From Acidobacteriota bacterium (GTDB lineage Bacteria; Acidobacteriota; UBA6911; RPQK01; G965218465), in the NCBI GenBank assembly GCA_965218465.1, contig OZ244623.1, positions 2,868,097-2,932,096 on the forward strand: a DNA stretch of 64,000 nt, given 5' to 3'. Positions 19,528 through 34,648 of this stretch are shown in pieces. Below the pieces are notes generated by a model that saw only the letters and a list, made by a program, of their open reading frames with translations, was not told where the DNA came from and ran no database searches. How positions within the stretch are numbered: position 1 is the stretch's first letter; every line of letters begins with the position of its first letter. A program made the translations under genes and the position numbers.

Positions 19528-19939
19528 TAGGAGACGAATCGTCCACAGACTTGATCGAGGCGACCCTGGCGCAGATGGTCCAGAACAGGGTCGAGATGGC
19601 CTATGCCCGCTCGGATCTTCTTTGAGCGCCGACGTATGCTGATGGAGGACTGGGCCGGTGCCTCAAGGTGGGTCAAAATTGCTTGATCACGCCGGGTCAT
19701 TTTTCCTTTGTCATTACGAAGCCGCCCAGATCCGCTCCCAGTCACTGTTGCTACTCTCCGAGCTTGACGACTTGGCGCGGGCGGAGCGGGCGGCCAAGTC
19801 GCTTTTGCGCAGTAATGGTGAATAACTTACTCTTTGCCCCCCAACTTTGTTGTCCTATCTGTCAACTCACCAACCCTCCTGTCAAGTCCAGGGCATGGTC
19901 GGAGTTGGTGACATCCGCAGAAGAATCAAAGAAGAATGT

Positions 19940-20797
19940 TCAGTTTGCGGCGCTCCGCTCGGAGAGGAGCCTTTTATCGACGTCGACCAACCAATGCCGA
20001 CGCTTTTCCTGCGGGAGAGTTGTAAAGTGCCTAAGCGCAATCCCGTCGCGAATATCGCCGCAACATCTCACCTCTCCATCGGGAAGGATGGCGATATCGC
20101 CAGAATCATAGGCTGCGTGACAATACGCACACAGACATATCCCGTTTGCGGGATTTGCCCTCTGGCTTTTATCGGATGCATAGCTTCGGATATGGGCAGC
20201 ATCGAGCACGGACGGAAGTTGAGTTCCACAAACTAGGCAGGTGTACTCGTGGCGCGACAGGACTATGGCGCGGAACACGCGCATACGGCTGCGACGTCTC
20301 ACAAGGGACCATGCATCATCCACGTGCCAATCGGCCTCATTCATCTGGACCGCCGGGGCCTTCGCTTGAAAAGCGGAATCCAAAGCTGCGTCGAGGAGAC
20401 GAACAAACAGATCTCGTTCTAATTGAGGCATCGAAATCGACCAGCCGATACTGTTCAAGTCTTTCGGGAGTCCGATTGACAACCGATTATGTCTACCAGG
20501 CTTGGTGCGCGTCGAAAGATCAAATAGTTTCGGAAACCAAACAACGTCCGCAAGATGCGCCGTGAACAGTCGCGTGACCTTCGCGCTTCGCCGTTCTCCT
20601 TCATTGGCCGGCCGTTGCGTCACCTTCGACACGCGTCCAGCTCCGGCCAAACCATATTGCGGGCCACTTTTCTTGAGATAGATAAACTCGTCTCCAGCTT
20701 GTACTTTTACCGAATGAGTATTGTCATAGACATACTGTTTGCCGGGAATGTCGGGGTAACTGCTTTGATCTGAAACCTTGAATATCCAGTAGCTCAT
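19940..20797 (-). CDS. HNH endonuclease with N-terminal PUA/EVE-like putative modified-base reader domain (type IV restriction-like)
   Basis: C-terminal HNH motif (YTCLVCGTQLPSVLDAAHIRSYASDK...NGICLCAYCHAAYDSGDIAI). N-terminus MSYWIFKVSDQSSYPDIPGKQYVYD...GDEFIYLKK...GAGRVSKV resembles the YWLxK/GD..FYH/G.G.V layout of EVE/PUA-like domains, assigned tentatively. The start is 4 bp after the vsr stop. Confidence 0.6.
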   Translation of the reverse strand: MSYWIFKVSDQSSYPDIPGKQYVYDNTHSVKVQAGDEFIYLKKSGPQYGLAGAGRVSKVTQRPANEGERRSAKVTRLFTAHLADVVWFPKLFDLSTRTKPGRHNRLSIGLPKDLNSIGWSISMPQLERDLFVRLLDAALDSAFQAKAPAVQMNEADWHVDDAWSLVRRRSRMRVFRAIVLSRHEYTCLVCGTQLPSVLDAAHIRSYASDKSQRANPANGICLCAYCHAAYDSGDIAILPDGEVRCCGDIRDGIALRHFTTLPQEKRRHWLVDVDKRLLSERSAAN

Positions 20798-20801
20798 CGT
20801 C

Positions 20802-21224
20802 TCACCGGCGAGACTGTCCGGCCCGCTTTCTGACCACTTCTTCGATGCGGTCCACACAGGATTCCGCATCCCGCTCCACCTCATGCTCCCAGATGCGGAT
20901 GACTAACCATCCCTCCCGTCGGAGCTTATTGGAGGTTCGCCGATCCCTGTAGCGGTTGCCCTCGATCTTCTTCCTCCAATAGGGGTCGAGTTTGTGCCTC
21001 CACCGGGAGAACTGCCAACCGTGCCAGAAGTCGCCGTCGACGAATACCGCGACTTTCGCACGTACAAAAACGAGATCAGGCCGTCCTGGAAGTCCGTTCT
21101 TGTGTTTACGGAACCGTAGGCCGCGCGCATGCACAAACCTGCGAATCGTCAGTTCGGGAGTCGTGTCCTTGCTTCGGATGCGGGACATCGTGAAGCTGCG
21201 TTGTTCCGGCGTCAGGTTGTCCAC
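20802..21224 (-). CDS. vsr: very-short-patch repair endonuclease (T:G mismatch nicking, 5mC deamination repair)
   Basis: 140 aa with the Vsr signature KDTTPELTIRRFVHARGLRFRKH...LPGRPDLVF...KVAVFVDGDFWHGW. Confidence 0.8.
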   Translation of the reverse strand: MDNLTPEQRSFTMSRIRSKDTTPELTIRRFVHARGLRFRKHKNGLPGRPDLVFVRAKVAVFVDGDFWHGWQFSRWRHKLDPYWRKKIEGNRYRDRRTSNKLRREGWLVIRIWEHEVERDAESCVDRIEEVVRKRAGQSRR

Positions 21225-21248
21225 TATGCGTCTTCCAGAAACACGCCT

Positions 21249-22415
21249 CTAGCCAGCAGCATCGTCCTGCGGAAGTCTCCAAACGGCAGTCCATGCCTTG
21301 TCAACTCGGATCAACGGCGCGTCCCTGTCCGTCTTCATCTGCCGTCCATGGACTACGCGGACAGCGTCCCCGACGTCGGGCAGATCCATGTCGTCCATTC
21401 TCATCCATTTACTTGGAATCTGCTCGATTGAAACGCGTTGTCCAAACACTGTCCCGGCCTGCCTCGATAGGACCAAAGTCGTGAGCGAGACGCCCTGAAC
21501 CTGTCGGCTCTCTATCTCAGCAATGTTCCCCTCCACGTGTGATCCGCAGTCCGTAGCCCATTCGGGTTGCGCTTCAGTCCAGAATGGACCACAGAATGGC
21601 AGACATGGGCAAAACGAGCAATTGCCGGGAGACGGAGAGGCGAGATCTCGGAAGGAAGCTCCCTCGGAGACCGCGGCATTAAATCTACCAAGCTGTTTCT
21701 TCGCACAGTCGGCCTCGGCCTCGGCCTCGGCCGGCGAAATCGCGAATTCACAGCGCTGTCCGTCACCTCGTACAACCGCACCCGTGCTTACGTCTGTTCC
21801 GTTCTCTGCGGCAATATATGCGTACAGTCGAAGTTGGCGCGCCTCAGAATCGGACACAATACCCCCCTCGGCTTCAGACATATGCCCTGTTTTGTAATCT
21901 ACAACTACGCCGGCCCGGCCGTCGATATAGTCGGCCCGGCCGACGACCCGGCCATCCCTCGAACTAAGACGGGATTCCGTCCTCACTGCTGGAGAAGCTA
22001 ATCTCGCCGCTTCAGCGGCAGAACTGGCCGACGGCATTCGAGACAAAGCGATGGGAGTTGCCGTAAGTGCAGCCCGTTCGCGGTTCAGGTGGTAGAAGGG
22101 CAGGCGGTCCGCAGAGGGGAACTTCAACTTGACCAAGCGGTGGGCGCCCAGATGAAGTTTCTGCGCCGTCTTGTCGAACAGCCGCCTTGCCGGAGAGCGG
22201 TCGCTGACGGCTGCCACCGGGAGCTCCCCTCTATGCGCGGCCGCCACAACCACATGGAAAGCCGTTCCTAGGATCGCCGCCGGGTGCTGAGGCAGAACAC
22301 CGACATCCCCAAAAGCGAACCATGCCGCCTTGGCGAGGCAGTGTATGCTGGCTTCATAGATGCTCGGTGTAATGCGCTTGAGCTGAGCTAGAAGCGGCGG
22401 CTCCGGGACGATCAT
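21249..22415 (-). CDS. RecB-family PD-(D/E)xK nuclease with Cas4-like C-terminal Cys cluster
   Basis: Motifs GRADYIDGRAGVVVDYKTG (motif II/III, hhhDYKTG) and QLRLYAY (QxxxY). C-terminal CSFCPCLPFC is a putative Fe-S/Zn cluster as in Cas4/AddB nucleases. Confidence 0.65.
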   Translation of the reverse strand: MIVPEPPLLAQLKRITPSIYEASIHCLAKAAWFAFGDVGVLPQHPAAILGTAFHVVVAAAHRGELPVAAVSDRSPARRLFDKTAQKLHLGAHRLVKLKFPSADRLPFYHLNRERAALTATPIALSRMPSASSAAEAARLASPAVRTESRLSSRDGRVVGRADYIDGRAGVVVDYKTGHMSEAEGGIVSDSEARQLRLYAYIAAENGTDVSTGAVVRGDGQRCEFAISPAEAEAEADCAKKQLGRFNAAVSEGASFRDLASPSPGNCSFCPCLPFCGPFWTEAQPEWATDCGSHVEGNIAEIESRQVQGVSLTTLVLSRQAGTVFGQRVSIEQIPSKWMRMDDMDLPDVGDAVRVVHGRQMKTDRDAPLIRVDKAWTAVWRLPQDDAAG

Positions 22416-22430
22416 GCTGTCATCAACTCC

Positions 22431-25400
22431 TCATTCATAAGGAAACCGAACAGCACGAAATACTGACCGCAGAGTCACGCTAAAGCCCTGCCCTTGCGCG
22501 TCTGAAACGGCGGCGGCCACCTCCGGGCGGAAGTTGGACGAATCCGTGTCCCAAAGCGGGTGGGTCAGGATAATGGCTTCATTGTTGAATGGATCAACTC
22601 CTCCGGACAATGCATCGAAGGTCCTCGTCTTCATTTGGAGGCCCTCGAAATAGGTCGGAGCAATACGGGCGACAAGATCGGACCAGTGGCTTGTGGTGAG
22701 ATCAATACGGGCGTTAGGATCAAGGGCCAGTTGCGCCATGTCGAGCCCCAACCTCCAGTCGAGTATTGGGTGAAAGGCCATGTTTCCGAATTCACGAAGA
22801 CAGCGGTGGCAAGAATTGACACAGTCATGGCTGTGCGGCGGCGTCACGAGCAGTCGATGAAACGAGTCGGGTGGAGTGCTCCGCGTCCAGGAGGGGCGCG
22901 CCTGCCCTAGGACAAACCGGAGGAGTTCTTCGAAGCGGACGGAGTCTCCTAGGAACGTGCTGTATCCAGCTCCGTTTTCCAGGTTGTCGGAGATGAAGAT
23001 GCGGGCGGTCGGTGGCGCGAACGGCGTGGAGAGGTCGGCAATAGGCTGGATTCCGAGGTCGAGTTCAGAATCATTTACGTCGAGGCTGACTGCGGCGGCC
23101 CGCCGGACAAGGAATCCGAAGGAATACCATGCGGCCTTCGCCTCCGGCTTGGATGGATTCAGGCAGAGTCCCACTGAGACAACGTTGATTCCGGCAGCCA
23201 TGACATCCGTATTGGATATGGCGCCAAGAGCACGCCGGACTCCGGGCGTCGCCGAATCGAACGACGGCCGTTGAATCCGTCCCCGCTCGGCGGCAGGAAG
23301 GTCGCGAAGAGCACTATCGAACGCTTCCTCAACCATCCAGAAATTTTGATTCGCTAGCTTTCGGAATTCGAAGTCGCTCCCATCGTTGTCGTTGATGCGG
23401 TAGATTCTGGCGGAGCCGCTGTCGATGCTGAAGTTTCTGTGAGTCCTGTAGTTGTCCAGCCCAGCCCCCATGCGGGCCCTCAAGGCCCTGGGCGTGAATT
23501 GGAAGCCACCCCGAAACTCGGCGCGGTCGGATATCGTCCACCAAGTGCTGAATCCAGGAGGTTCGGTCAATTCCGCTAGTCGATAGCCGTCCGGTCCGTG
23601 CGCGGCCGAACAATATGGGCACCTACCCGACTGCTCAGGCTGGGTAACCAGGGCCTGGCATCGACGGCATACGCCAACAATCTCTGACTCTCCGAGTGGA
23701 TTCGGCGCCAGGGCGACGCCCCCCATATCGGGGACGAATTCAACCACTCCGACGGCCGTGTGAAGCTTGTCGTCTTTGATTGACTGTGCACCAGGCGCAA
23801 ACTGGCTGATGGCGATGTCAAGTTCGCGGTCGATAATCCCGTACTGAGGAGGCCAGCGGATTGGTTGCTTATGATGCAGGAGGCGCGTTCGCGTCGGGAA
23901 GCCAAACATTGGAAGTACACCGTGGGAGGCCAAACGTTCGCTAAGCGCATGATGCGTGTTGCTGCTGCCGGCGATTTCATCGATCCGGTCGAGCAACTCC
24001 GTTTTGACGTACTGGGTGATGCTCGTAACGCCAGCCGTGTTGTCCATTGCAGTTCGACGCAGAATGTGGTGTCCGATGTCCTCGATAAATAGTCCGTTGA
24101 CAGCAATCCAGTCTGAGACGGTCTGTCGATAACCGGACCACTTCCCGACGGTTCCAAACTCTCCATGAACATTCTCGCCTGAGTGCTCGATCTCGATGCC
24201 TTCAAACGAATGCCGAAGTACTTCTTTGTTGACGACTCGCTGCGCGATTTCCGGCCGCGAAACATCCACATACGGGCGAGGTGGCGGCTCAGCTGTAATT
24301 AGATGAGGCCGTTCAAAATAATAGTCATCGTGGCTGCGGCCCCGGCAGAGCGTCAATGCTGCTGACATTCCAAGACCCCTCCGTCCGGCACGTCCGACCC
24401 TCTGCTGGTAGTTGAAACGGATGGGGGGCATGTTCGCCATGCCGATCATCTGCAGCGATCCGATGTCTACGCCCGCCTCCATGGTTGTAGTGACGCTGAG
24501 GAGGTCCACTCCGAAGGCCTTTTCAAGTTCTCGATCAAGGAAGATCTCCTGGAACCATCTCTGTCGGTCGATGCGGTCGTCACGGTCCGTCTGTCCAGTG
24601 AGTTCCTCGCAGTTGAGGCGAAACGGATCGTCGTTGCATCGAGCCAGGTATTCATAGAAGTCCATTTCGCTGGCGTCCGAAGCCGTGGGATGGCGATGCG
24701 GCGCGTTCGGAAGCCGATTCCGGCAGACCGTACAAATACCGCCGGACGCATGCAGGTGGACGGAACCGCATCTTTGGCAAGAGAAGACATCGATGCACAC
24801 GTCCGTTCCAGGGACGGGGGTCAACACGTAAAGGCGTTGCGGGACAACCAGCCATTGATCCACGGCGTCGCTCAACAGAGTTAGGATGTCCTCCAGCAAT
24901 GTAGCTGCGTCGAGCCCATTGAGATCGGCGACGGCCTGAGCGTACCGGCGGATGTCTCGGGGCGCTTGAAGTCTGCCGTCCGACGCCGGAGTCCAACGGA
25001 ATCTCTTTGCTAGCATTCTGACTATGGAAGCCGCCGCGCACTCCTGCACAGTAGCTGGCCCCGAGTCATTGATCCAAAGGAGCCCAAGCCTCAGCGACTC
25101 GAAGTCACGGCTTCCCCCTGCGAAGAGAACGTCGTTTATGACGGAGCGCAACAACTCGGCTTCAATTCGATCCCGCAACTCCTGCTCAACCGGCTGAAGG
25201 TCCAGCCGATATCTGTGCTGCTCCACGTTCCAGTCGAAGATGTCCGTCCAAGGGATCGTCGTTGTCTGCCACTTATACTCCCTTACGCCTGGCAATGGCC
25301 CACCCGGATTTATCCCGATTCGTAGGAGCGACTCTCGCACGAAATCCACAAGGGCGTTGAACGACATGCTGCCGAAGCCGGTAGGCGGCGAGGGGCGTTG

Positions 25401-27962
25401 TAACGATCCCTTAGACCCGGCAAGCTGCATGACACGGCCGACGACTCCGGCCTCAAGTGTCTGGATGAGCTCTTGAAGGCGGCTCATCTCAGCCGCGTCG
25501 AGGGATTGCATATTCTGTTTCCGGACAAGCATTAGGAGTTCACATGACTGTTGGTATGACTCCATGGACCGGGCGTATTCGGATTCGGAGTTTTCAATCT
25601 GCTTCATGAGACGGCGGAACACTGTCTGCCGGACATTGTCCAGATAGTGTGCGTGTTTGATGCCGGTGGACAGCTTTGCAGCGTCTTGGCGGCTGTCCGA
25701 GAAAAGGACGAGCTTTCGCCTCCTGGAATCGGGGATCTCCCGCATCATGCCGTCACTCAAGAGCTGCATGACGCGCTGGAAGCCGGAGCCCAGATCGCGG
25801 ATAGGGGACTCAATTCGCCGCCGCGACCAGTCGTCTCCGCAGTGCGGGCACTTTCTAGGAAAGGCGTTTGCTTCGTCATCGGTGCTGTTGAAGGCGAAGC
25901 CGACCGATTCCTGCGCCCGCGCGTTTCTTGATCTCATTTCATAGGTCAGGCGGCCGGGAATCGATTGAAGGGCGGCGGGATGCCAACGGTGGCTGCCGTC
26001 CAGCCACCTCCATTGCGGGCCGGCATGCGTTGATCGATAAATCGGCCGCCCGTTAGCAGGCCAGAAGACGAGATATTCTCCGAACTTCCTGTTGAGCGAG
26101 GCCGATCGGTCAGGGACCTGATCCAAGTTCGGATAGTCGGGAGACAGAAACCAAGCATTCGGGGAGTTGGGGTCCAACTTCTTGTACCCCCCGAGGAACA
26201 CCTCTCCGCACGGCTGGCAGTATAGCAGTTCGAGAACACGGGACCCGCAAGAATCACAGCGGGGCACCGGGTCGGCAAACAACCGCCCGACCGGAGGAGT
26301 ATCTTGACCGGTTGGCGTTGTCGCCGTGCGGCCTGAGCAACCCGGGTTTACACATGCCCAAATTCTTCCCGCATTATGGAAGAAGTAATGAATGCGAAAC
26401 GGTAGCGGAGCAACCATACTCCCTGGCTCTGCACCCGGTATGCGAGCATGGATCAAGCCACGGACGAGTCCGCGTGTGGCTGCAATATCGGCATTAGAAG
26501 TGTTGCCAAAAACTATAGATGAAAGACGCTCAAGGGTCAGCGGCTCATTCTCACAAGCCGCCCGCAACGGCTCAAGAGCATGAATCTCCTTGTAGCCACG
26601 TGCGAAAACCTCGGCCGGTTTACCGATTGTCTCGGCCCCAACCACAGACGCAAATTCCCTCGCGGCCTGATCAAGTGGAATCGAATCTAAATTATTGTTA
26701 AGAGAGGAGAACACTCTTGCGTACGGCAGCATCCCGGAGCGCGGGGCCGGAAACTTCCGTTGCCGGCCTGAGAGTATCTCGAACGAGCCTCCATCACGGC
26801 CGAAGAACTGCTCCAGGTAAGTACGGCTCTGGTCGTCGTTGCTTATAGACGCGCTGGTCGCAATGATCCTTAGTTGCGGCGAATCCGGATCGAGGCCGAT
26901 TCGATGCAGGAGCGCCCGGAGCAGGTAACCCACCTCAGTTCCTGGCGTACCCCGGTACGTGTGCAGTTCGTCTACAACCAGATGGAACACATGGTTACTG
27001 CGGTCTGCCTCCAACCACGCCTTTGTCAGATCGAAAATGTTGCTTTCGAGCTCCCGCATCAACATGATGTTCAGCATGCTGTAGTTCGTAATCAAGATGT
27101 CCGGTGGATGGCTCTGCATGTCCCACCTCGACCACATCTCTGATCCCTCCGGATTCTGAAAGTAGTGCAGGATGTCGTCCGATCCTCGCGTGGCTGCAGA
27201 CGCCTGTGCGCGTCCCCAATTGCAGTCCATTTCAAGCAGCCGCCTCTTGAGTTCAGCTCGCTTGGGGGGGCTCTCCTCGGTCCCGGAAACAGGGGCGACG
27301 GCGTTGTACCGACCGAACCAGAAATGATGCTTGGCGAATGGTCCTGAGAACCACTGCCTTGCCTCTTCATTGTCGCAGGCTTGTCGGATGCGGCCCAGTT
27401 GGTCCTCGATAAGCGCGTTCAGGGGATACAACATCAGCGCACGCACGGCGCACGGACGGTCCACGGATTCGTGCCCCCGTTGTGGAATGCGGGGTTGATA
27501 TGGATGCCTCCACCACATGTGTCTGGTGGGCACAGAGGATTGTGTCCCCCACCCGCGCATGAGGTCCTCGACCAAATAGGCGAAGATCGGCAGCAGATAG
27601 CATTCGGTCTTACCGGAGCCCGTTCCTGTCGTCACGACAACTGAGCGCCCGGCGCGAGAATGCCGCCATGCGTCAACTTGATGTTCATAGAGGGGAATTT
27701 CAGCCCGGAAAAGCCCGCGAGTGATGAAGTCAGCAGCCTCGGTGGGAACGCCCAGACGTGCGCATGTCTTTTCGACGGTCAGTTCGGAGCTCTCGTACGG
27801 AGGAACCGGCTCGATCAGAGGTTCGCGAAATAGTCGGCGGTCCTGAAATAGAAGGCGGCGCCTTTCCTCCCGAAGAGCGTCGTAGCGCAACCGGAACGGG
27901 CTGTCGAGATACCGCTGGTATGCAAGTTGAATCTCCTCGAACACCTTAAACGGATCGTTCAT
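22431..27962 (-). CDS. giant SF2 DExH helicase with internal Zn-ribbon insertion and C-terminal DUF1998-like (MrfA-type) Zn-binding domain; Druantia DruE-like / DISARM DrmA-like
   Basis: 1843 aa. Walker A VVVTTGTGSGKTE (~aa 105). DExH HLVVDELHTY (~aa 330). Motif III IATSAS. Motif VI QQRVGRAGRRG only at ~aa 1175. Between the RecA lobes lie CxxC pairs (CDSCGSR...CQPCGE; CPHCGDD; CQRCGS...CTVCRN). C-terminal CRRCQAL...CPYCSA and CVNSCHRC form a DUF1998-like tail. Confidence 0.75.
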   Translation of the reverse strand: MNDPFKVFEEIQLAYQRYLDSPFRLRYDALREERRRLLFQDRRLFREPLIEPVPPYESSELTVEKTCARLGVPTEAADFITRGLFRAEIPLYEHQVDAWRHSRAGRSVVVTTGTGSGKTECYLLPIFAYLVEDLMRGWGTQSSVPTRHMWWRHPYQPRIPQRGHESVDRPCAVRALMLYPLNALIEDQLGRIRQACDNEEARQWFSGPFAKHHFWFGRYNAVAPVSGTEESPPKRAELKRRLLEMDCNWGRAQASAATRGSDDILHYFQNPEGSEMWSRWDMQSHPPDILITNYSMLNIMLMRELESNIFDLTKAWLEADRSNHVFHLVVDELHTYRGTPGTEVGYLLRALLHRIGLDPDSPQLRIIATSASISNDDQSRTYLEQFFGRDGGSFEILSGRQRKFPAPRSGMLPYARVFSSLNNNLDSIPLDQAAREFASVVGAETIGKPAEVFARGYKEIHALEPLRAACENEPLTLERLSSIVFGNTSNADIAATRGLVRGLIHARIPGAEPGSMVAPLPFRIHYFFHNAGRIWACVNPGCSGRTATTPTGQDTPPVGRLFADPVPRCDSCGSRVLELLYCQPCGEVFLGGYKKLDPNSPNAWFLSPDYPNLDQVPDRSASLNRKFGEYLVFWPANGRPIYRSTHAGPQWRWLDGSHRWHPAALQSIPGRLTYEMRSRNARAQESVGFAFNSTDDEANAFPRKCPHCGDDWSRRRIESPIRDLGSGFQRVMQLLSDGMMREIPDSRRRKLVLFSDSRQDAAKLSTGIKHAHYLDNVRQTVFRRLMKQIENSESEYARSMESYQQSCELLMLVRKQNMQSLDAAEMSRLQELIQTLEAGVVGRVMQLAGSKGSLQRPSPPTGFGSMSFNALVDFVRESLLRIGINPGGPLPGVREYKWQTTTIPWTDIFDWNVEQHRYRLDLQPVEQELRDRIEAELLRSVINDVLFAGGSRDFESLRLGLLWINDSGPATVQECAAASIVRMLAKRFRWTPASDGRLQAPRDIRRYAQAVADLNGLDAATLLEDILTLLSDAVDQWLVVPQRLYVLTPVPGTDVCIDVFSCQRCGSVHLHASGGICTVCRNRLPNAPHRHPTASDASEMDFYEYLARCNDDPFRLNCEELTGQTDRDDRIDRQRWFQEIFLDRELEKAFGVDLLSVTTTMEAGVDIGSLQMIGMANMPPIRFNYQQRVGRAGRRGLGMSAALTLCRGRSHDDYYFERPHLITAEPPPRPYVDVSRPEIAQRVVNKEVLRHSFEGIEIEHSGENVHGEFGTVGKWSGYRQTVSDWIAVNGLFIEDIGHHILRRTAMDNTAGVTSITQYVKTELLDRIDEIAGSSNTHHALSERLASHGVLPMFGFPTRTRLLHHKQPIRWPPQYGIIDRELDIAISQFAPGAQSIKDDKLHTAVGVVEFVPDMGGVALAPNPLGESEIVGVCRRCQALVTQPEQSGRCPYCSAAHGPDGYRLAELTEPPGFSTWWTISDRAEFRGGFQFTPRALRARMGAGLDNYRTHRNFSIDSGSARIYRINDNDGSDFEFRKLANQNFWMVEEAFDSALRDLPAAERGRIQRPSFDSATPGVRRALGAISNTDVMAAGINVVSVGLCLNPSKPEAKAAWYSFGFLVRRAAAVSLDVNDSELDLGIQPIADLSTPFAPPTARIFISDNLENGAGYSTFLGDSVRFEELLRFVLGQARPSWTRSTPPDSFHRLLVTPPHSHDCVNSCHRCLREFGNMAFHPILDWRLGLDMAQLALDPNARIDLTTSHWSDLVARIAPTYFEGLQMKTRTFDALSGGVDPFNNEAIILTHPLWDTDSSNFRPEVAAAVSDAQGQGFSVTLRSVFRAVRFPYE

Positions 27963-27978
27963 GGGTCTATTTCACTCG

Positions 27979-28875
27979 TTAGGGCAGGACGGTAACTCCA
28001 GGGTGCGGTTGACCGGCGGCGACCATCAGCAGAGCGGCCACTTCGGGGGTTACATCGAAGTAGACAAACCGTCCGTCAATTAATTGCGCAGGACGGCACG
28101 CACAGAGACATGCGGCTCGGGAATATAGTGCTGGCATCGGTGCGAACAACGGCACACTCAACTCCAGGGAATGAGGCTCGTAATCAATCAGACGAACCCC
28201 CTTCAGCATGGCAGCCGCATAGAGGGACTCCCGCTTGGGCATCCTCAACAGCTTCCCGCTTCTTCTGCGAACGTAGTATTGGGGTCGGCCGTAGGTGGGC
28301 GTAAACTCACACGCCGCATTCGGCAAAAGTCCGTCGACCCACGCGCGTATGCCAAGGTCGAAGAACCGGGCCTTCCAGTTTAACGGGGCTGGTTCCTGAG
28401 CCGCGGCCTCGAATACGCATGGAATGGGAGGAACGTTTTCCGCAATTCGTCTCCCGTTATCAGGTTGATAAGCCACTCCAATGTGGCTGGAGATTTCGGC
28501 AATCACCCGCCTTTCACCAACGACACGGAAGGATGTCGGACAGTCCTTGAGGGCTTCCTCTTGGAGCTTGCCTCCATGCACTTTAGCCCCGTTCCTTAGC
28601 GCCTCGACAAGAGCAGGAGTGCGTCTTCCATAAAGGACGGCAGCATCCGCCTGGGCGGCAAGGCCTCCAAGGACGGGCGGCAGCATGTTCCACCGCTGAG
28701 AACCATCTACAAAAAAATCGGTGAAGCCGAGATCCGACAAACCAACTCTCAGTGCGCGGGACAACTCCAGCGGATCACGATCTCCACTTACAATCTCCTC
28801 AGCCGCCTTTCGAAACCTTATCCATGACCCCTCTCCCAAGTGGGTCATCCATGTCAGTAACAGATCGCAGTTCAT
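27979..28875 (-). CDS. hypothetical protein (positionally DruG-like)
   Basis: 298 aa with no recognisable motif. Its start overlaps the upstream gene's stop by ATGA (translational coupling). A 17-bp gap separates it from the helicase gene. Confidence 0.5.
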   Translation of the reverse strand: MNCDLLLTWMTHLGEGSWIRFRKAAEEIVSGDRDPLELSRALRVGLSDLGFTDFFVDGSQRWNMLPPVLGGLAAQADAAVLYGRRTPALVEALRNGAKVHGGKLQEEALKDCPTSFRVVGERRVIAEISSHIGVAYQPDNGRRIAENVPPIPCVFEAAAQEPAPLNWKARFFDLGIRAWVDGLLPNAACEFTPTYGRPQYYVRRRSGKLLRMPKRESLYAAAMLKGVRLIDYEPHSLELSVPLFAPMPALYSRAACLCACRPAQLIDGRFVYFDVTPEVAALLMVAAGQPHPGVTVLP

Positions 28876-31800
28876 TGGGGCTTCTTGAGTTTCCGCTTTA
28901 TGTTCTTCGCCAATGCGGCGTATTTCTTCCAGCCGTCAACGATGCCTTCATCGGGGACAGCCCCGTTCAGTCCAACGAAGCGCGGGCGGCGGATGTGCGC
29001 CTCGTAAACGACGGTGCTCCACTGCTCGATTAGCTTCCGAGTTTGCACCGTTAGCCTGCGAAGGGTGAGCATTCGTGGTGGACTTGGATAGGAAGCAACC
29101 GCGACCACCGCGCCAGGGCCTGCACCCACTCGGATGGCCCAACTGGGATGGAATGGACATGACGCGATAGTTCCCTGGAAAAACTCTTCGTCTGAGTAGC
29201 AGACCTGGTCCGGCGAGTTGCCTATCAAGGTCCATGAGCCATGCGGCAAGGCAATCCTTCTGCTACGGTCAGCATCGAGCGATTCATGAAGTTCAGTCTG
29301 GCTCTGGACAGACAGTTGCGGCCGTTCTATTGCAATTCTCCTTCGCATGCTACCCGCCTCGACGAGATATTCGCCGGGCTCAGAGAAGACCCCTTCCGCC
29401 AGCAACTCACCGCTCGCATCAACTCCCACCGATGCGCCGTTCACCTTTATACGGTCTCGTGCCTCCATGCCGGACACTAGGATTCGCGGCGGGGCTCCCG
29501 TGAGCCATGACCAGCGGCGTCCTAGCCGCAGGCCACCCGCAACGATCAATTTAATTTTTCGATCGACTTCCAACGCCTCAAGAGTAGCGGGCGCTTCGAC
29601 ATGGACGCGTGCCGAAACATCGCGGAACATGGACCAACCGTTCGGCAGCAGTGGGTGTGATACCGGGCTCAGCAAGCCTTGCGCAACTTCGCTCAGGTAG
29701 TCTTTCACTATGGGGACAATGTTGTCGCAGCATAGAACGGAGCACCTGACACCACGCAGCAGGCGTCGGCTCGATAGAAAACCGCTGTAGCTTGATGACG
29801 GTGTGAAAGGAATGGCCAACGCCCCAGAGCGCCTCAGCGTAAAGTCGATGCCTCTTGCATGCGACAACCACTCGAAGCCGCTTTCCAAAAGTTCTCCATC
29901 CTCCGAACGGAGTTGCGCGGGGTCGTACCACCCTTCGTCTGATGCCTCGAACACCCGCTTCCCGTCCCCGAACACTTTAGGAAATCCGGGAGGCCGCCGA
30001 GGCAAGTAGAAGAAAACCGGGCTCCTCTGGACAACATCGAACTGAATCTCGACCAGTGCGCTACGCCTGCTGGGCGACTCGCAAAAGCTTCCGTCCCATG
30101 CTTCCAATTCAGCACTCGCTTGGGCAGAAATGGCGGCGGAGCGGTCGTCATAAAGGGCACTCGTAGCGGTTGGCGTAAGCATGTTCCGTGACTGTTGCCA
30201 CCGCCTCAAATCGGAGAGCAGGCGGTCATGCCGGACCCGGGCTCCAGGCTGGTATCCCGCCCAAGAAAAGAACACCGGGAGCTTCTCGATGTCCAAGGAC
30301 CGAAGCGGAACGTGCGTCAACGGCAACGCAACGAACCGCCTGAACCCCGTGTCGCTTTTCGGCATCGCAAGCTGGCGCCTATGTGCTTTACGAAGCCAAG
30401 TGTGCAGGAACACCCAAAGCGACTCGAACACCGCTGGATTAAATCCGGGAGGGTGTGCTCCGTGCATTTCACACTTGAGGAGGTCCGCCAAGCGCCTGTA
30501 GTAGGCGTTTCCCGACAACTCTTCGTCGGACTGCATGCGAAATGCAGCAAGGACCGAACCTGCGAGGAAGGCCGCGCAGTCAGGGGAGCCGTCGGCACTG
30601 CATCGACGCAGCACACGAAGCCGCGCGCTGTGTTGAAGAACATGCCCCTGATAAAGGTTCGCAACCGCTGTTGTGAACTGCTGCTCTGCCTGCTCAGGCG
30701 TTATTGGACCCAAGCCGGCCTCCTCGAACACTCTCGCCAATATGCGGGGGTTGACGCACAAGAGAGCTTCTTCTGAGGATGGGCCCGCAAGCAGCAATTG
30801 CTCGACAACAGCGGTGTTCCAGCGGGCATACTCATGGTCGACCGCGGAAACGTCCTGGACCGCCACTAGATATTCATGTGCATCCTCTGGAAGTGTTAGC
30901 TGACGTGGAGATGGATCTCTCCAGTCATCGGCGGTCGCCCACACGTCTTCTTCTGTCGGTTTCTGGGGCTCTTCTTCGGCCTGCGGACGATCCATACATC
31001 CCGACTCCGATTTGCCCACACCCACTGAGGTGGTCCTGTGCGCCTCCGGCGACGCATCTCGTCCGCATCGGTTCTCGTTTAGTAGACTTGCTGGGCTTGT
31101 GGACAAAGTACCGGCGGATGCGTCTTCCGCAGTCCGCTCACCAGCGTTTGGAGAGGATATGGTGGTTATTCCCTTGTGTTGGACATCAAGGGGCGGATGA
31201 GGATCGGAGCGAGGAGCCACCTCATCTATTTGAGACGTGTCCTCGTGGACAGATCTGTGGTCCACACCGCTGTCGCCTGCACCTGCGACTTCTGGGCGTG
31301 CCGAATCGTCCCCGTCCTCGTTCCCATTGGTCATTCTGCCTTCTCGGACAGTACACGGCGTGGCCGCTTCATGACCAGTTTCGACGTTTCTCGGCGGTTC
31401 CTCAGCCGACGACTCGTCGACTCCCATTTGTACTGGGTAGCGCGTTGGATCGTGTTCCATTGCCTCATCGACCGAGACGATTTCTTCGCCGAAGCCTCCT
31501 TCAGAGCTAGGTCCAGATTCAGAGCCGGGGTTCGCGTCTCGTATCGGCTGCTTCTCCTGCACCAATGGCTTCGGAGTTTCTGTTGCGACGGTTTCAGAAT
31601 CCGTTTCTCCTTCGGTAACGCTCCCAACCTGAATGGGTTTAACAGACTCTTCAACCTGGGATTCCTCAAGCGTATTAGTCGATCCTGCCTCGATCGGTTG
31701 ATCGCTCAACTGGTCACCGCTCCCGTCATCGGTTGACGCTAGCGCGGATTGGTGGACGCCGGGTTGGTCTTTGTCAGGCGTCAGTGATGCTTCAGAAGCG

Positions 31801-31919
31801 AGTCCGAACCGAGACAACACGGAGAGTAACGCCTTCAATATTTGTGCGGTGATCCGTCCCAAGTCAGAGTTCCAGCAGGAATTCGCCGATTGCCTTCGAC
31901 ACAAGCGGACACACCGCAT
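28872..31919 (-). CDS. large hypothetical protein with ~330-aa acidic low-complexity N-terminal region and ~680-aa C-terminal globular domain (positionally DruF-like)
   Basis: 1015-aa ORF. N-terminal third is D/E/S/T/P-rich (…EESQVEESVKPIQVGSVTEGETDSETVATETPKPLVQEK…). A more likely start is GTG at 31820, because the ORF's first 56 bp overlap the methyltransferase gene. The stop overlaps the next gene's ATG. Confidence 0.5.
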   Translation of the reverse strand: MRCVRLCRRQSANSCWNSDLGRITAQILKALLSVLSRFGLASEASLTPDKDQPGVHQSALASTDDGSGDQLSDQPIEAGSTNTLEESQVEESVKPIQVGSVTEGETDSETVATETPKPLVQEKQPIRDANPGSESGPSSEGGFGEEIVSVDEAMEHDPTRYPVQMGVDESSAEEPPRNVETGHEAATPCTVREGRMTNGNEDGDDSARPEVAGAGDSGVDHRSVHEDTSQIDEVAPRSDPHPPLDVQHKGITTISSPNAGERTAEDASAGTLSTSPASLLNENRCGRDASPEAHRTTSVGVGKSESGCMDRPQAEEEPQKPTEEDVWATADDWRDPSPRQLTLPEDAHEYLVAVQDVSAVDHEYARWNTAVVEQLLLAGPSSEEALLCVNPRILARVFEEAGLGPITPEQAEQQFTTAVANLYQGHVLQHSARLRVLRRCSADGSPDCAAFLAGSVLAAFRMQSDEELSGNAYYRRLADLLKCEMHGAHPPGFNPAVFESLWVFLHTWLRKAHRRQLAMPKSDTGFRRFVALPLTHVPLRSLDIEKLPVFFSWAGYQPGARVRHDRLLSDLRRWQQSRNMLTPTATSALYDDRSAAISAQASAELEAWDGSFCESPSRRSALVEIQFDVVQRSPVFFYLPRRPPGFPKVFGDGKRVFEASDEGWYDPAQLRSEDGELLESGFEWLSHARGIDFTLRRSGALAIPFTPSSSYSGFLSSRRLLRGVRCSVLCCDNIVPIVKDYLSEVAQGLLSPVSHPLLPNGWSMFRDVSARVHVEAPATLEALEVDRKIKLIVAGGLRLGRRWSWLTGAPPRILVSGMEARDRIKVNGASVGVDASGELLAEGVFSEPGEYLVEAGSMRRRIAIERPQLSVQSQTELHESLDADRSRRIALPHGSWTLIGNSPDQVCYSDEEFFQGTIASCPFHPSWAIRVGAGPGAVVAVASYPSPPRMLTLRRLTVQTRKLIEQWSTVVYEAHIRRPRFVGLNGAVPDEGIVDGWKKYAALAKNIKRKLKKPQ

Positions 31920-33969
31920 TGGCCAGTTGCTGCTGCTTGTGCATCAAACCGCCGGATTGACCGTCCACGGTGCCCGCAAACCGAAACCAGTCGGGGAACG
32001 ATTGAAGCCGGCTTGCCTCACGCAGCGATAGCCCACGATTCTGCTCCGGATGAATGAGCATGCTTTTCCGATAGTGGCCGATCGTAATAGACGGCTCGTC
32101 CCATTCCAACCGTCGATAGATGTTGCTGTGGGTCCGCTTCACCTGCGAGTAGTTCGACATCATTTCCACTATGTCCTGCCAATTCCCCCCGGCAGGGATT
32201 CGTTTGTAGCGTTCGATAACATAATCGGTATGGCGTGACGTGATGTGGTCTAGAATATTTGTCTTGGGTGCGCTGTTACGCATCAGCGTTAGAAATTTAT
32301 TGCCCTCCCCTGTCGCAGGTTCACAATAGTCAATTTCATCCAAACCATGACCGTTGCCGATTGGTGGCAAATCGCCAATCGCCCCGCGGACCGTTACGAA
32401 CGAACGTCCTGCAAGGGGACCGTGGGTGGGGGTCGGAAAAGGGCCCCAGTCACCAAAGTCGTCCACGGAATAGCCAGCGTCCCTATGGATTCCCAGAACA
32501 AAAAAGCGCGTTCGGAATTGGGGCACACCGTACCAGACTGCATCCAACAGCTTTGGAAAAGTCATGTACCCAGCCAATTTCATCCGCTCAACAATGTGTT
32601 CCGCAACACTGGGCTGGATTTCTGACTTGCCGTTCCTTGCAGTCCATGCAATTCCCTGCACATTCTCAATCAAAAACACCGAAGGATTCAATTTCTCGAC
32701 ATATCTCATGAAAACGGTGACCATTTGATTCTGCGGATTAGTGCTCGACCACGAATTGCGGTTTGCACTAGAGAACCCTTGGCAGGGTGGACCTCCAACA
32801 AGAATGTCGACACCCCCCGCCTCAATCGCCTTGGATGCGACCAGTTCTAGTATCTTTCGGTCGTTAAGGTCGAACGGTTCAATGGACTCTGGAACGAAAT
32901 CACGCCACTTTGATTTTTGCATTCCAACTAGGCAGCTATGAGTATTTCTGAGGGTTTGAATGTAGATCGGATGAAGTTCCCCTGCGAAAACAAGCCGAAA
33001 CCGCCTCTTGGGATGTTTAGACATTAAGAATCCGAGTCCCATTCCCCCAGCGCCAGCAAAAAGCTCTACGACGTTGAGCACATTCGCTCCGGCGAACTTC
33101 GCACCACGGGGCCTACTTTCCGAACAGACAGTGTTCGAATCGCCTTCCGAAGATTTGTCCTGAAGCCTTGCGAGAGTAATGTTTGATCGATATCGCAACA
33201 TTAGGCCGGGCCCGTTATTCAGGGCTTCTCCTTCGTGCGACAGGCTTGGAGGCTTGCGCAAATTTCTTTCTTGTCGTCGGACGAGGGGCCTAATCCATCG
33301 GACCCAACCAATGTATCGGACAAGATCTTCAAGTGGAGTAGCGCGCAGCGAAGTCAGTCCGATAATCGTTCCTGGATGCAGTCCTACAATGCCGCCTGTC
33401 TGAGCCACAAACAGGCGTGCCGTTGTGTCGTCCGGCAAACATACTTTCGCTAGATCAGCTACCGAAAATCGCATGGAAGATGTTCCGTTGCCCGGAGCAA
33501 CCTCCACATCCCGCCACACCGCACCCCCTAACGTATCTGCCGCTCTTTGTTTGACCCACTTTCCGCGTTGTGCACACTCAACTTCGTGACTTGGTCGGAT
33601 TTCAAGGATAAAGTCTAGTCTCTTTTCAACCAGAGACTTGATGAACGAAAAACTGCTACCATAGGAGGCCCCTGCAACAATAACCGGGTCCCCTCCTAGT
33701 CTATTGCACCTGCTGAGCAATCCGAGTGCTACCGTTTGCTTGTATTCCTTTGTTCCCGTCTCCGCCTGCCGTCGCGCCACCTGTGCCTTACCGTAGACTT
33801 TCTTCCATTTGCCTTCGACGATCTTGTGCACACGAACTGTGACCGACGGATCGCCTTGGCCGCGCTGTAGTCCCAGAATTGGGCGTCGGTTTGATCTCGC
33901 ACTGTCGTCTTCTACCAGCAAGATGATGCCCAAGTTGGTTTGCGTCAAAAGGGGCCTTACATTCGACAT
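31864..33969 (-). CDS. DNA (cytosine-5)-methyltransferase with ~290-aa N-terminal extra domain (DruM-like / Dcm-like)
   Basis: C-terminal ~410 aa carry motif I LFAGAGGMGLGF, motif IV ILVGGPPCQGFSSANR, motif VI FLIENVQG, and motif IX/X region (ASRLQSFPDWFRF, QLANAVCP). The N-terminal domain (…GGDPVIVAGASYGSSFSFIKSLVEKRLDFILEIRPSHEV…) is unassigned. Confidence 0.8.
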   Translation of the reverse strand: MSNVRPLLTQTNLGIILLVEDDSARSNRRPILGLQRGQGDPSVTVRVHKIVEGKWKKVYGKAQVARRQAETGTKEYKQTVALGLLSRCNRLGGDPVIVAGASYGSSFSFIKSLVEKRLDFILEIRPSHEVECAQRGKWVKQRAADTLGGAVWRDVEVAPGNGTSSMRFSVADLAKVCLPDDTTARLFVAQTGGIVGLHPGTIIGLTSLRATPLEDLVRYIGWVRWIRPLVRRQERNLRKPPSLSHEGEALNNGPGLMLRYRSNITLARLQDKSSEGDSNTVCSESRPRGAKFAGANVLNVVELFAGAGGMGLGFLMSKHPKRRFRLVFAGELHPIYIQTLRNTHSCLVGMQKSKWRDFVPESIEPFDLNDRKILELVASKAIEAGGVDILVGGPPCQGFSSANRNSWSSTNPQNQMVTVFMRYVEKLNPSVFLIENVQGIAWTARNGKSEIQPSVAEHIVERMKLAGYMTFPKLLDAVWYGVPQFRTRFFVLGIHRDAGYSVDDFGDWGPFPTPTHGPLAGRSFVTVRGAIGDLPPIGNGHGLDEIDYCEPATGEGNKFLTLMRNSAPKTNILDHITSRHTDYVIERYKRIPAGGNWQDIVEMMSNYSQVKRTHSNIYRRLEWDEPSITIGHYRKSMLIHPEQNRGLSLREASRLQSFPDWFRFAGTVDGQSGGLMHKQQQLANAVCPLVSKAIGEFLLEL

Positions 33970-34244
33970 CTAGAGCAGCACCGGTTTGCGAGGATCGAGG
34001 ATATGAAGGTCTGCATGCCCACAAAACGTGGCAAGATCCATATTTTTCAATTATATCTCTGTGGTCGGGGTTTCTCCAGCACTTGAGGGCTGGCGCCGAG
34101 AACGCAGTGATGGTTCGATCCGCAGGCTGCAACATTCCGTCCAACTTGGTGGTCGCATGGCGGAGCATCTCGCGGGAGTAGCGGTGACGGCCCGGTACAA
34201 CACTGGGTCCCGTAGGCCCACAATCGTCCAACCCAGCTGCAATG

Positions 34245-34607: not shown

Positions 34608-34648
34608 GGCTTGTGATCCTCGTTGAAATTCTAACCTTGCCGGCTACC

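Follow-up and report, generated by a model that had tools for sequence, protein, structure and literature searches.

A seven-gene Druantia operon with a C5 methylase, Vsr and a predicted EVE-HNH restriction enzyme in an Acidobacteriota bacterium

Introduction

The gene order of type II Druantia, as reportedly given by Doron et al. in 2018, is DruM-DruF-DruG-DruE. This type has been renamed 'Type IV CoCoNuT' (Bell et al. 2025, PMC12458937), and in type I and II DruE, the C-terminal Vsr-like nuclease domain is inactivated (PMC12458937). Type IV is described as lacking DruM (Payne et al. 2021, PMC8565338). Type I has been linked with host DNA methylation (10.1101/2024.04.14.589459). In type III, host methylation is absent (10.64898/2026.05.12.722862), and DruE has 3'-5' helicase activity, its loading sites being ssDNA or 3' overhangs (10.64898/2026.05.13.724758; 10.64898/2026.05.12.722862). 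In the literature searched, no experiments on type II or IV Druantia were found, and by phrase search the type IV name occurred in only two papers.

Enzymes of the VcaM4I group favour 5hmC over 5mC and restrict T4gt (PMC6765204, PMC7897488); in VcaM4I, the HNH domain is autoinhibited by the EVE domain and the linker (PMC7897488). Among PUA-HNH enzymes, fewer than 6% are encoded no further than 3 kb from a DNA methylase (PMC6765204). About half of the MspJI homologues have a 5mC methylase as neighbour, often together with vsr, an association that has been called unexplained (Zheng 2010, PMC2938202). The locus described here lies in a 64,000-nt stretch of an Acidobacteriota genome (contig OZ244623.1; the window). 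It represents a known but mechanistically unsolved Druantia system in enriched form, not a new kind of system.

Results

Seven co-directional ORFs are tightly packed on the minus strand: 31864-33969 (701 aa), 28872-31919 (1015 aa), 27979-28875 (298 aa), 22431-27962 (1843 aa), 21249-22415 (388 aa), 20802-21224 (140 aa) and 19940-20884. The coordinates and junctions agree with a sequence-only reading of this DNA, which had described one operon-like unit with overlaps or short gaps. As that reading had it, the methylase stop (31864-31866) falls inside the start region of the next ORF, with an overlap of 56 nt if DruF starts at ATG. However, the TTG at 31862, one nt past the methylase stop, is the likelier start and agrees with the N-termini of homologues (consensus MKRII..LKAL). 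The ATGA overlap between DruF and DruL is confirmed. Among the gaps read earlier as 17, 15, 24 and 4 nt, the first (DruL-DruE) is corrected to 16 nt; the second (DruE-DruK, containing GGAG) and the third (DruK-Vsr) stand, and the fourth (Vsr-HNH) holds if HNH starts at Met30 of its long ORF (20797), where its homologues begin. No convincing intrinsic terminator was found at any of the operon's gene boundaries. The best sigma-70-like promoter candidate upstream of druM (TGGAGA-17-TATAAT, 34050..34078, minus strand, 10/12 match) is weak, and promoter-like sites overall are not enriched over shuffles; approximately 110 nt 5' of druM are conserved with locus L006 of another Acidobacteriota genome.

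DruM (701 aa, 31864..33969, minus strand) consists of an IS701-transposase-derived N-terminal domain (aa 1-~293, nt 33091-33969) and an intact C5 cytosine methyltransferase (aa 299-696), in which the motifs FAGAGG, PCQ, ENV, QFRTR and ANAV are all present (Pfam DNA_methylase 8e-44; PADLOC MTase_II 1.6e-75; DruM2 1.4e-58). The IS701 model NF033540 matches DruM at 1.5e-8 and 18 of 18 homologous domains, and 23 loci show an in-frame fusion; the domain has been lost in some relatives. It is itself conserved and has no conserved DDE triad. DruF (28872..31919, minus strand; 1015 aa from ATG, 996 aa from TTG 31862) begins with a helix and an acidic disordered region of approximately 300 aa (aa 39-341, nt 30897-31805). 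A domain made of helices (aa ~345-610) comes next, then beta-sandwich domains of the Ig-like type (aa ~618-950), and helices again form the C-terminus; the protein lacks any NTPase motif. No description of the IS701-derived domain or of the acidic region was found in the literature searched. DruL (298 aa, 27979..28875, minus strand) had been taken for DruG, but it matches the PADLOC model DruL4 (1.6e-20) and aligns with the C-terminal ~240 aa of the long DruF2 models, and the PADLOC DruG models match none of the seven proteins. It has no Pfam match and no PDB sequence match.

DruE (1843 aa, 22431..27962, minus strand) is a YprA/MrfA-like helicase of the SF2 DExH class that also contains an MZB (DUF1998) domain and several CxxC zinc modules. 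It matches DEAD, Helicase_C and MZB in Pfam, DruE4 in PADLOC with 1779 bits and two DruE2 models with 1531 and 1462 bits, and its GTGSGKTE, DELH and QQRVGRAGR motifs are invariant in homologue alignment A1. Of the 8000 candidates scored, more than 7000 are homologues at E<=1e-20, and most of the 120 best listed have lengths of ~1840-1860 aa. By these profile matches, genes 1-4 are members of the Druantia II/IV family, and their best fit is a DruM-like C5 methylase added to PADLOC type IV (DruF-DruL-DruE4). This core fits less well with type II (M-F-G-E), to which it had been assigned earlier. DISARM was excluded, as the PADLOC models gave weak local DrmA matches and nothing more.

DruK (388 aa, 21249..22415, minus strand) is a Cas4/RecB-like PD-(D/E)xK nuclease with a four-Cys cluster of the Fe-S type (Pfam PDDEXK_1 5e-14; PADLOC DruK 2e-22; Cas4 3e-7). 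In 22 homologues, C26, C266-x2-C269-x5-C275, D162, D173-Y-K175 and Q194-x3-Y198 are invariant or near-invariant. This nuclease had been thought to lie outside described Druantia; in fact, PADLOC models it, and among the close relatives it is the commonest gene 3' of DruE. A role as the system's nuclease effector is proposed for it. Vsr (140 aa, GTG start, 20802..21224, minus strand) is a very-short-patch T:G mismatch endonuclease with the motifs PDLV and FWHG (Pfam Vsr 2.6e-28; TIGR00632 120 bits, cutoff 97.85); the Cys residues of the E. coli Vsr zinc site are missing from it.

The last protein (285 aa, 19940..20797, minus strand) combines an N-terminal EVE (PUA-superfamily) domain, a reader of modified bases, with an HNH_2 nuclease that contains CxxC...CxxC (Pfam HNH_2 2e-11); a linker helix joins the two. 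VcaM4I (6yex) was matched by phmmer against the PDB at 2e-5, and it was also the best Foldseek match (E 7e-10) of the AF2 model (pLDDT 89), with further matches to the EVE domains 2g2x/2eve (N-terminal half), THYN1 bound to 5mC DNA, and TagI. This fold suggests a type IV modification-dependent restriction endonuclease. The earlier identifications of gene 1 as a C5 methylase, gene 4 as a DruE-type helicase, gene 5 as a PD-(D/E)xK nuclease with a Cas4-like Cys cluster, gene 6 as Vsr and gene 7 as PUA/EVE-HNH are all borne out.

A repeat search with pairwise alignment showed that direct repeats of ~105 nt, with approximately 70 near-identical bases, bound the operon. The att-like right copy (34649..34755, no strand assigned) is the native 3' end of an MFS transporter gene (34651-35970, minus strand, MFS_1 match), and the att-like left copy (19421..19525, no strand assigned) is a duplicate of this 3' end. 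A tblastn search with the intact 441-aa integrase located 3' of the HNH gene in locus L008 revealed a remnant of a P4-like tyrosine integrase (19542..19656, plus strand; ~40 codons, aa 381-418), the remainder of which is deleted; by blastn, 19529-19950 is 71% identical to L008. The repeats and the integrase remnant mark the ends of a 15.1-kb region (~19526-34648), whose G+C content is 0.52-0.59, whereas that of the flanks is higher, at 0.61-0.63. In L006, the same seven genes lie between 124-nt direct repeats. The arrangement is far beyond chance: its gene order is shared by dozens of genomes across many phyla, and repeats bracket the block both here and in L006.

Close relatives were defined as loci with DruE >=50% identity (33 loci, 27 of them scorable for methylase and DruL). 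The C5 methylase is present in 27/27 and DruL in 26/27 scorable loci; DruK directly follows DruE in 22/33, Vsr occurs in 19/33 (after DruK in 18/33), and EVE-HNH occurs in 5/33. All seven genes are found in L001, L002, L006, L008 and L021, whose DruE proteins are 76-87% identical to that of the window. A Nostoc plasmid carries the four-gene core alone. The slot 3' of DruE, filled by DruK here, holds an REase_II-like protein in Sphingomonas Leaf230, which we take to be the genome of Bell's type II representative KQQ96139.1; its DruF-DruL-DruE core is the same, with a DruE identity of 40%. The slot 3' of Vsr, filled by EVE-HNH here, is occupied by an AspBHI_N+Mrr_cat enzyme in L056 and by pPIWI_RE_REase in L010, and it is empty in most loci. 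AspBHI is a member of the 5mC-dependent MspJI family. Because the core occurs without the add-ons and the later genes vary, the functional layers are separable. The EVE-HNH family also occurs beside unrelated C5-methylase systems.

The EVE-HNH family is small (62 clusters). Outside Druantia, a C5 methylase lies <10 kb away in 6/7 independent contexts, three of them with Vsr and one of these a Vsr-methylase fusion, a proportion that has no background rate beside it, and methylases concentrate in defence islands anyway. Such near-constant proximity is unusual for PUA-HNH enzymes, and no description of this close company with C5 methylases and Vsr was found in the literature searched. In L087, Vsr and HNH overlap by 4 nt; in L083, no recognisable methylase is nearby. 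The proximity hints at a closer tie to 5mC than that of an independent add-on.

Discussion

Based on the results presented above, the region is probably a horizontally acquired, now immobilised defence island, the whole cargo of which is one operon in three layers: a Druantia system (genes 1-5), Vsr maintenance (gene 6) and an EVE-HNH type IV enzyme (gene 7). We infer the activities, the division of labour and the EVE specificity as follows. In the first layer, DruM, with its degenerate IS701-like domain and active C5 methylase, would mark host DNA. DruE, as a YprA-like 3'-5' DExH helicase, would cooperate with DruF and DruL, both devoid of enzymatic motifs, to act on invading DNA in which the mark is missing or ssDNA or ends are exposed, and DruK would degrade the unwound DNA. 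DruK may thereby supply the nuclease missing from DruE, if the C-terminal Vsr-like domain is inactive as in type I/II DruE. It cannot be an obligatory effector, because it is missing from one third of the close relatives (Nostoc-type loci). Methylation-based self/non-self discrimination by the present system is extrapolated.

In the second layer, Vsr would, by analogy with Dcm-Vsr, nick T:G mismatches arising from deaminated DruM 5-methylcytosines, as a maintenance partner of the methylase and not as an antiviral effector. Vsr tracks the methylase and is most simply regarded as the repair partner of the latter, probably offsetting its mutagenic cost. In the third layer, EVE-HNH would act as a self-contained type IV restriction enzyme, in which EVE flips out a modified cytosine and thereby licenses HNH. 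Its target is most likely of the 5hmC type and not the host's own 5mC motif, so that it may cover phages that evade the first layer through cytosine hypermodification. On our reading, this enzyme is an interchangeable type IV restriction add-on and not a Druantia effector.

Another explanation, which we consider rather unlikely, is that methylase, Vsr and EVE-HNH form a functional triad in which the EVE domain senses the state of the cognate DruM 5mC mark. EVE-HNH may then be inactive on correctly methylated host motifs or attack methylation of a foreign pattern, and HNH would be a real restriction arm tied to DruM, a role long suspected and never resolved for MspJI-family enzymes beside a C5 methylase and vsr. 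The methylase-rich contexts of the family outside Druantia are consistent with this, as are the 4-nt Vsr-HNH distances (a gap in the window, an overlap in L087), the AspBHI-like enzyme in the HNH slot of L056, the neighbourhoods of MspJI homologues (Zheng 2010, PMC2938202) and the autoinhibition of HNH in VcaM4I (PMC7897488). However, 28 of the 33 close Druantia relatives keep the methylase without an HNH gene, L083 has EVE-HNH without a recognisable methylase nearby, and the characterised EVE-HNH enzymes are plain modification-dependent nucleases.

It is improbable that the locus is one extended seven-protein Druantia machine with DruK, Vsr and EVE-HNH as antiviral effectors recruited by DruE, as the sequence-only reading proposed. 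The single operon with minimal gaps, the placement of all seven genes within one mobile island in the window and in L006, their recurrence in five other loci (L006 among them) and the apparent presence of HNH and DruE homologues on common contigs, down to ~62% DruE identity, speak for such a machine. On the other hand, relatives have lost DruK, Vsr and HNH step by step and independently, unrelated restriction machineries also have the HNH family and Vsr beside them, other nucleases take the same slots (L056, L010, Leaf230), and the well-established role of Vsr as the methylase's repair partner explains it sufficiently. An effector role of Vsr and EVE-HNH in Druantia is not demonstrable. The 4-nt Vsr-HNH spacing and the co-transfer of seven genes in at least two genomes also fit a functionally integrated unit, against the layered model.

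About as improbable is a core acting like type III Druantia, which would sense exposed ssDNA or 3' ends with methylation unused, DruM being an orphan or regulatory methylase and DruK trimming DNA ends in a Cas4/AddB-like manner without destroying the target: the shared helicase core, the absence of host methylation in type III (10.64898/2026.05.12.722862), the dispensability of DruK and the loss of the IS701-like domain in some relatives are compatible with it, but an intact-motif C5 methylase heads the operon in 27/27 scorable relatives, and the retention of Vsr in 19/33 is sensible only if the host chromosome is actively methylated by this enzyme.

Under the favoured three-layer reading, the closest known system is PADLOC type IV Druantia (DruE-DruF-DruL; PMC8565338), in which DruF and DruL likewise lie directly upstream of DruE in the same order and DruK is also modelled. 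Here, in contrast, a C5 methylase with an IS701-like domain heads the operon, the N-terminal part of DruF is long, acidic and disordered, and the operon is extended by Vsr and the EVE-HNH enzyme. Type II shares the C5 methylase, DruF and a ~1.8-kaa DruE, and its DruE2 and DruM2 models match. Type III (DruH-DruE), the sole mechanistically studied type, has a homologous helicase core (PADLOC DruE3 down to 2e-108) and is the likely source, by analogy, of a 3'-5' unwinding mechanism for the present DruE; however, the present system has no DruH equivalent and no fused PLD nuclease, its partner proteins are entirely different, and it includes a methylase and a separate Cas4-like nuclease. The VcaM4I/TspA15I group (PMC6765204, PMC7897488) shares the two-domain architecture and fold of EVE-HNH, VcaM4I ranking first by sequence and structure, and the HNH_2 domain of the window protein has the Cys4 zinc site and conserved His; the identity to VcaM4I is only ~16%, and the window protein's family is usually near a C5 methylase and often near Vsr. 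MspJI-family loci (PMC2938202) show the same triad of modification-dependent nuclease, vsr and 5mC methylase, but with SRA-like and Mrr domains instead of EVE and HNH, and here the triad sits in a helicase-based Druantia operon. Finally, the Dcm-Vsr pair of E. coli likewise couples a C5 methylase with a Vsr of the same family, although the two genes overlap there and are found at the two ends of a 14-kb operon here.

Organization of the operon

The sequence-only reading had placed seven closely coupled open reading frames on the minus strand at 19940-33969, and all seven are found there, encoding DruM, DruF, DruL, DruE, DruK, Vsr and an EVE-HNH protein in that order. Their tight packing also stands, including the ATGA overlap between DruF and DruL, and the corrections needed are trivial; the other gaps measure 16, 15, 24 and 4 nt. 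The 15-nt gap between DruE and DruK contains GGAG, and the 4-nt gap between Vsr and HNH applies when the HNH protein starts at Met30 of its long frame (20797), as in its homologues. If DruF starts at ATG, the methylase stop lies inside its frame; judged from the sequence, a TTG start 1 nt past that stop is likelier, because the homologues begin with MKRII..LKAL there. No convincing terminator is present at the gene boundaries of the operon, and the top promoter-like match, a weak one, lies approximately 80 nt upstream of druM.

Features of the encoded proteins

DruM matches the PADLOC model DruM2 (1.4e-58) and Pfam DNA_methylase (8e-44), and by motif reading its C5 methylase catalytic motifs are complete (FAGAGG, PCQ, ENV, QFRTR and ANAV). 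The methylase part comprises residues 299-696 only. The N-terminal domain (aa 1-293, 33091-33969, minus strand), which is fused in frame, matches the IS701 transposase model NF033540 at 34-35 bits (1.5e-8), against a far higher cutoff of 150 bits, and the same model is matched by 18 of 18 aligned homologous domains. The in-frame fusion to a C5 methylase recurs in 23 loci from several phyla; in some lineages, the domain is gone and the RSNITLARLQDES linker is retained. In the 18-sequence alignment, there is no conserved DDE triad, and E20 and D21 are the only conserved acidic residues of the domain. The motifs VVVAGxSYG and RWIRP resemble the second-Asp and Glu motifs of IS4/IS701, with the catalytic residues replaced. 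Given the lack of further conserved acidic residues in the alignment and this comparison with the IS4/IS701 motifs, we regard the domain as a domesticated, probably inactive transposase remnant. A phmmer search of all libraries (1.84 billion representatives) placed the family in 73 clusters, among which, judged by length, no bona fide transposase is evident, the long members being of DruM length and many others short fragments. Similarly, tblastn of plasmids found no true IS701 transposase, the sole match being another DruM, from Nostoc, and a profile of the domain matched no PDB sequence even at E<=10.

DruF is matched by the PADLOC models DruF2 and DruF4 over residues ~360-620 only. The structure model assigns to it an acidic, predicted disordered region (aa 39-341, 30897-31805, minus strand; pI 4.2, net charge -42) of approximately 300 residues, rich in Ser, Glu, Asp and Pro and poor in aromatic residues, followed by a helical domain and then by Ig-like beta-sandwiches. 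In the homologues, the acidic region spans 200-390 aa of like composition and its sequence is not conserved; the homologue on the Nostoc plasmid pC052_B has only 664 aa in all. The region could act as a DNA mimic or as an autoinhibitory arm. Bell et al. reported McrB-like CnuB homology for Druantia I/II (PMC12458937), and their type IV CoCoNuT is characterised by an inactivated McrB-like GTPase that carries a long coiled-coil extension; motif reading finds no Walker A motif in DruF, and this homology is therefore not detectable in the protein of the window. DruL, which the sequence-only reading had taken for DruG, matches DruL4 (1.6e-20) as well as the C-terminal portion of the long DruF2 models, and the DruG identity was rejected accordingly. 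At E<=0.01, the seven proteins gave no match to a DruG model, although the presence of a DruG model in the PADLOC library was not independently confirmed. A profile search of PDB sequences revealed no relative of known structure for DruL, even at E<=10.

DruE is best matched by DruE4 (1779 bits), with full-length DruE2 matches of 1531 bits and 1462 bits, and it carries Pfam DEAD, Helicase_C and MZB domains, several CxxC zinc modules and intact GTGSGKTE, DELH and QQRVGRAGR motifs. Homologues are abundant (more than 7000 at E<=1e-20 among 8000 candidates scored), and the best 120 are mostly ~1840-1860 aa long; a 100% identical DruE is encoded on a metagenome contig of 13.5 kb (3x coverage) that contains frameshifts, and among genomes the closest DruE proteins come from two MAGs, one of Terriglobia (87%) and one of Acidobacteriota (85%). 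By BLASTP, Vsr shows no similarity to the C-terminal end of DruE. DruK had been thought to lie outside described Druantia, but PADLOC already models it, and the protein matches the DruK models at 2e-22 and Cas4 at 3e-7. Across 22 homologues, C26, C266-x2-C269-x5-C275, D162, D173-Y-K175 and Q194-x3-Y198 are invariant or nearly so, a residue set that, as read from the alignment, predicts an active Fe-S nuclease of the Cas4/RecB-like PD-(D/E)xK type.

Vsr exceeds the cutoffs of both TIGR00632 (120.1 bits versus 97.85) and Pfam Vsr (98 bits versus 27) and contains the PDLV and FWHG motifs. For gene 7, the PUA/EVE-HNH identity proposed earlier was correct: Pfam HNH_2 matches at 2e-11, the top PDB sequence match is the characterised enzyme VcaM4I, and the AlphaFold (AF2) model built from 30 homologues (pLDDT 89) is predicted to join, within a single chain, an N-terminal EVE/PUA-like fold to an HNH beta-beta-alpha-metal domain at the C-terminus. 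Foldseek ranks VcaM4I first for this model (7e-10), with further matches to the EVE proteins 2g2x/2eve (4e-5 to 8e-5), human THYN1 with 5mC DNA (1e-4) and TagI (3e-4). An identity of 16% is too low for a reliable mapping of the VcaM4I pocket residues P24, W82 and Y130 (PMC7897488); the conserved aromatics of the family are W4, F6, Y22, Y40 and W119.

Relatives and classification of the system

A total of 78 genome loci around DruE relatives were fetched, and the seven proteins were mapped onto them. The close clade, defined by at least 50% DruE identity, extends through Acidobacteriota, Planctomycetota, Gemmatimonadota, Actinomycetota, Alpha- and Deltaproteobacteria, Cyanobacteria and others. 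Type II features (Doron 2018) are present in the window, namely, a DruE-type DUF1998/MZB helicase together with a DruM methylase, and so is that of type IV, a helicase of the DruE4 type directly preceded by DruF and DruL, an order that recurs in the relatives. Type IV has been described without DruM (Payne 2021, PADLOC; PMC8565338), as a descriptive feature and not necessarily as a classifier rule, whereas the window and all 27 scorable loci of the close clade are headed by a C5 methylase. The IS701-like domain is present on this methylase in 23 of the 27 scorable loci, and DruL is present in 26 of them. A DISARM class 2 assignment was rejected, since PADLOC returned only generic helicase-lobe and methylase matches: DrmA matches weakly and locally (1e-8) on the helicase C-terminal lobe of DruE, DrmMII models match the methylase as dozens of generic MTase models do, and DrmB, DrmC, DrmD and DrmE match none of the seven proteins.

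The genes behind druE vary far more. In the close clade, DruK directly follows DruE in 22 of 33 loci, Vsr occurs in 19 (18 of them with DruK) and EVE-HNH in 5. The EVE-HNH gene is confined to relatives with 76-87% DruE identity and is missing in others at 72-82%; Nostoc-type loci, including that on plasmid pC052_B of a cultured strain, hold the four-gene core only. In the clade at ~40% DruE identity, the methylase is different, unfused and often missing, and DruK and Vsr are sporadic. One locus of this clade, L050 from Sphingomonas sp. Leaf230, encodes a DruE best matched by DruE4, a DruL and, directly after DruE in the slot held by DruK in the window, a REase_II-like protein of 635 aa (15575-17482). 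The Leaf230 genome is presumably that of the "type II" representative of Bell et al. "Type II" and "type IV" Druantia are thus one family, with a nuclease of variable type in the slot after druE. The Leaf230 locus also carries a DruM2-type methylase 3.4 kb beyond the REase_II-like gene, on the opposite strand.

Most relatives have no conserved gene after Vsr. In one locus (L056), this slot holds an AspBHI_N + Mrr_cat enzyme (17108-18502), AspBHI being a member of the 5mC-dependent MspJI family; in another (L010), it holds a pPIWI_RE_Y + pPIWI_RE_REase protein (17184-18284). The add-on genes of the operon act as interchangeable modules.

The operon as cargo of an integrative island

The operon is enclosed by imperfect direct repeats of ~105 nt at 19421-19525 and 34649-34755, the right copy being the 3' terminus of the gene for an MFS transporter (34651-35970, minus strand). 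Adjoining the left repeat is a remnant of a P4-like tyrosine integrase, ~40 codons of its C-terminus (19542-19656, plus strand), the rest of which is deleted. The G+C content is 0.52-0.59 within the island and 0.61-0.63 outside, and the flanks are ordinary chromosomal genes: a peroxidase-family protein, probably KatG (15871-18003), and a steroid 5-alpha-reductase-like protein (18588-19346) on the left, and the MFS transporter and an SNF-family symporter (36315-37805) on the right. A tRNA gene was rejected as the integration site, as there is none in the window and the island instead adjoins the MFS gene at its 3' end. Between the right repeat and druM are two further minus-strand frames without a Pfam match, one of 120 aa (34245-34607) that contains a membrane-like hydrophobic stretch, the other, an overlapping frame, of 147 aa (33788-34231).

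In two relatives, repeats likewise surround the operon. In L006, 124-nt direct repeats (3452-3575 and 18082-18205, 94%) surround exactly the same seven genes and represent the 3' terminus of another target gene, which encodes 445 aa and has no Pfam match; there is no integrase inside this island, and conservation with the window upstream of druM ends after ~110 nt. A gene next to the L006 island, on its downstream side, contains an unrelated 21-nt tandem repeat of ~8 units (19602-19769). In L008, an intact integrase gene stands just after the HNH gene, and two integrase copies (2518-3792 and 18223-19497, 95% identical) flank the operon as a 1275-nt inverted repeat; the methylase gene of L008 is truncated. 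The repeats, the integrase remnant, the G+C content and these two loci therefore identify the seven genes as the entire cargo of a 15.1-kb integrative element, now immobilised in the window. This shows that the seven genes travel together; a joint function is not thereby established.

Proposed mechanism and comparison with known systems

We know of no experimental establishment of the mechanism of Druantia types II and IV. Pairing of Vsr with a neighbouring C5 methylase is textbook knowledge, and since Vsr is kept and the methylase is universal, the methylase appears really to act on the host chromosome, which fits the link to host methylation reported for type I Druantia (10.1101/2024.04.14.589459). 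A composite of three layers, in which we infer all activities, is the best-supported reading, and we hold it to be reasonably probable. In the first layer (genes 1-5), DruM would methylate host cytosines, and DruE with DruF and DruL would load on invading DNA and unwind it 3'-5', the polarity shown for type III DruE (10.64898/2026.05.13.724758; 10.64898/2026.05.12.722862). DruK would supply the nuclease, because the only nuclease domain of type I/II DruE, at the C-terminus, is inactivated (PMC12458937). In the second layer, Vsr would repair T:G mismatches arising from the deaminated methylase product. In the third, the EVE-HNH protein would be an independent type IV enzyme that catches cytosine-hypermodifying phages, by analogy with the VcaM4I group, whose members prefer 5hmC to 5mC and restrict T4gt (PMC6765204, PMC7897488).

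The EVE-HNH family is small (62 clusters in 5.8 billion proteins), and nine of its more distant members were inspected for context. Two of the nine lie in decayed Druantia loci (L084 and L087), and one (L083) has no recognisable methylase. L087 was rejected as an independent Vsr-HNH context and left out of the independent count, since a DruK C-terminal fragment is retained; this fragment, Vsr and HNH persist there (9239-10861) downstream of an rve-type IS and adjoin an unrelated HD-CE / ORC-Cdc6-like / C5-methylase cluster. The contexts of the distant members thus mark the EVE-HNH gene as a mobile module accompanying C5 methylases, not Druantia as such. The main rival of the three-layer reading is a functional triad of methylase, Vsr and EVE-HNH, in which the cognate mark would be probed by the reader; we regard it as unlikely. 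The single extended machine of all seven proteins that the sequence-only reading had proposed is quite improbable, for although the genes share one island, the trailing ones are lost or replaced stepwise and independently.

The close clade provides a compact and fully specified set of components open to testing: besides an intact C5 methylase and a helicase, these are two non-enzymatic partners, a separate Cas4-like nuclease and Vsr. It renders the epigenetic self/non-self question of Druantia II/IV, and the question of which protein cuts, directly accessible to a few point mutants. The literature searched yielded no description of the clade-wide DruM-DruF-DruL-DruE-DruK-Vsr architecture, of the transposase-derived domain on DruM, of the acidic disordered arm of DruF or of the methylase/Vsr-linked EVE-HNH family. 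The domesticated IS701 domain of DruM provides a clear case of a transposase remnant taken into a defence protein. The parts of the operon all come from known families, and EVE-HNH enzymes are an established class; the operon is thus nothing categorically new. It is a good experimental way into an unsolved system.

Compared with known reader nucleases, fewer than 6% of PUA-nuclease fusions have a DNA methylase within 3 kb (Lutz et al., PMC6765204). For approximately half of the MspJI homologues, a 5mC methylase lies adjacent, frequently together with vsr, an association called unexplained (Zheng et al., PMC2938202), and the EVE-HNH family of the window resembles these homologues in keeping the company of C5 methylases. 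Its association with C5 methylases and Vsr revives this unexplained MspJI-type association in a second, unrelated reader-nuclease family.
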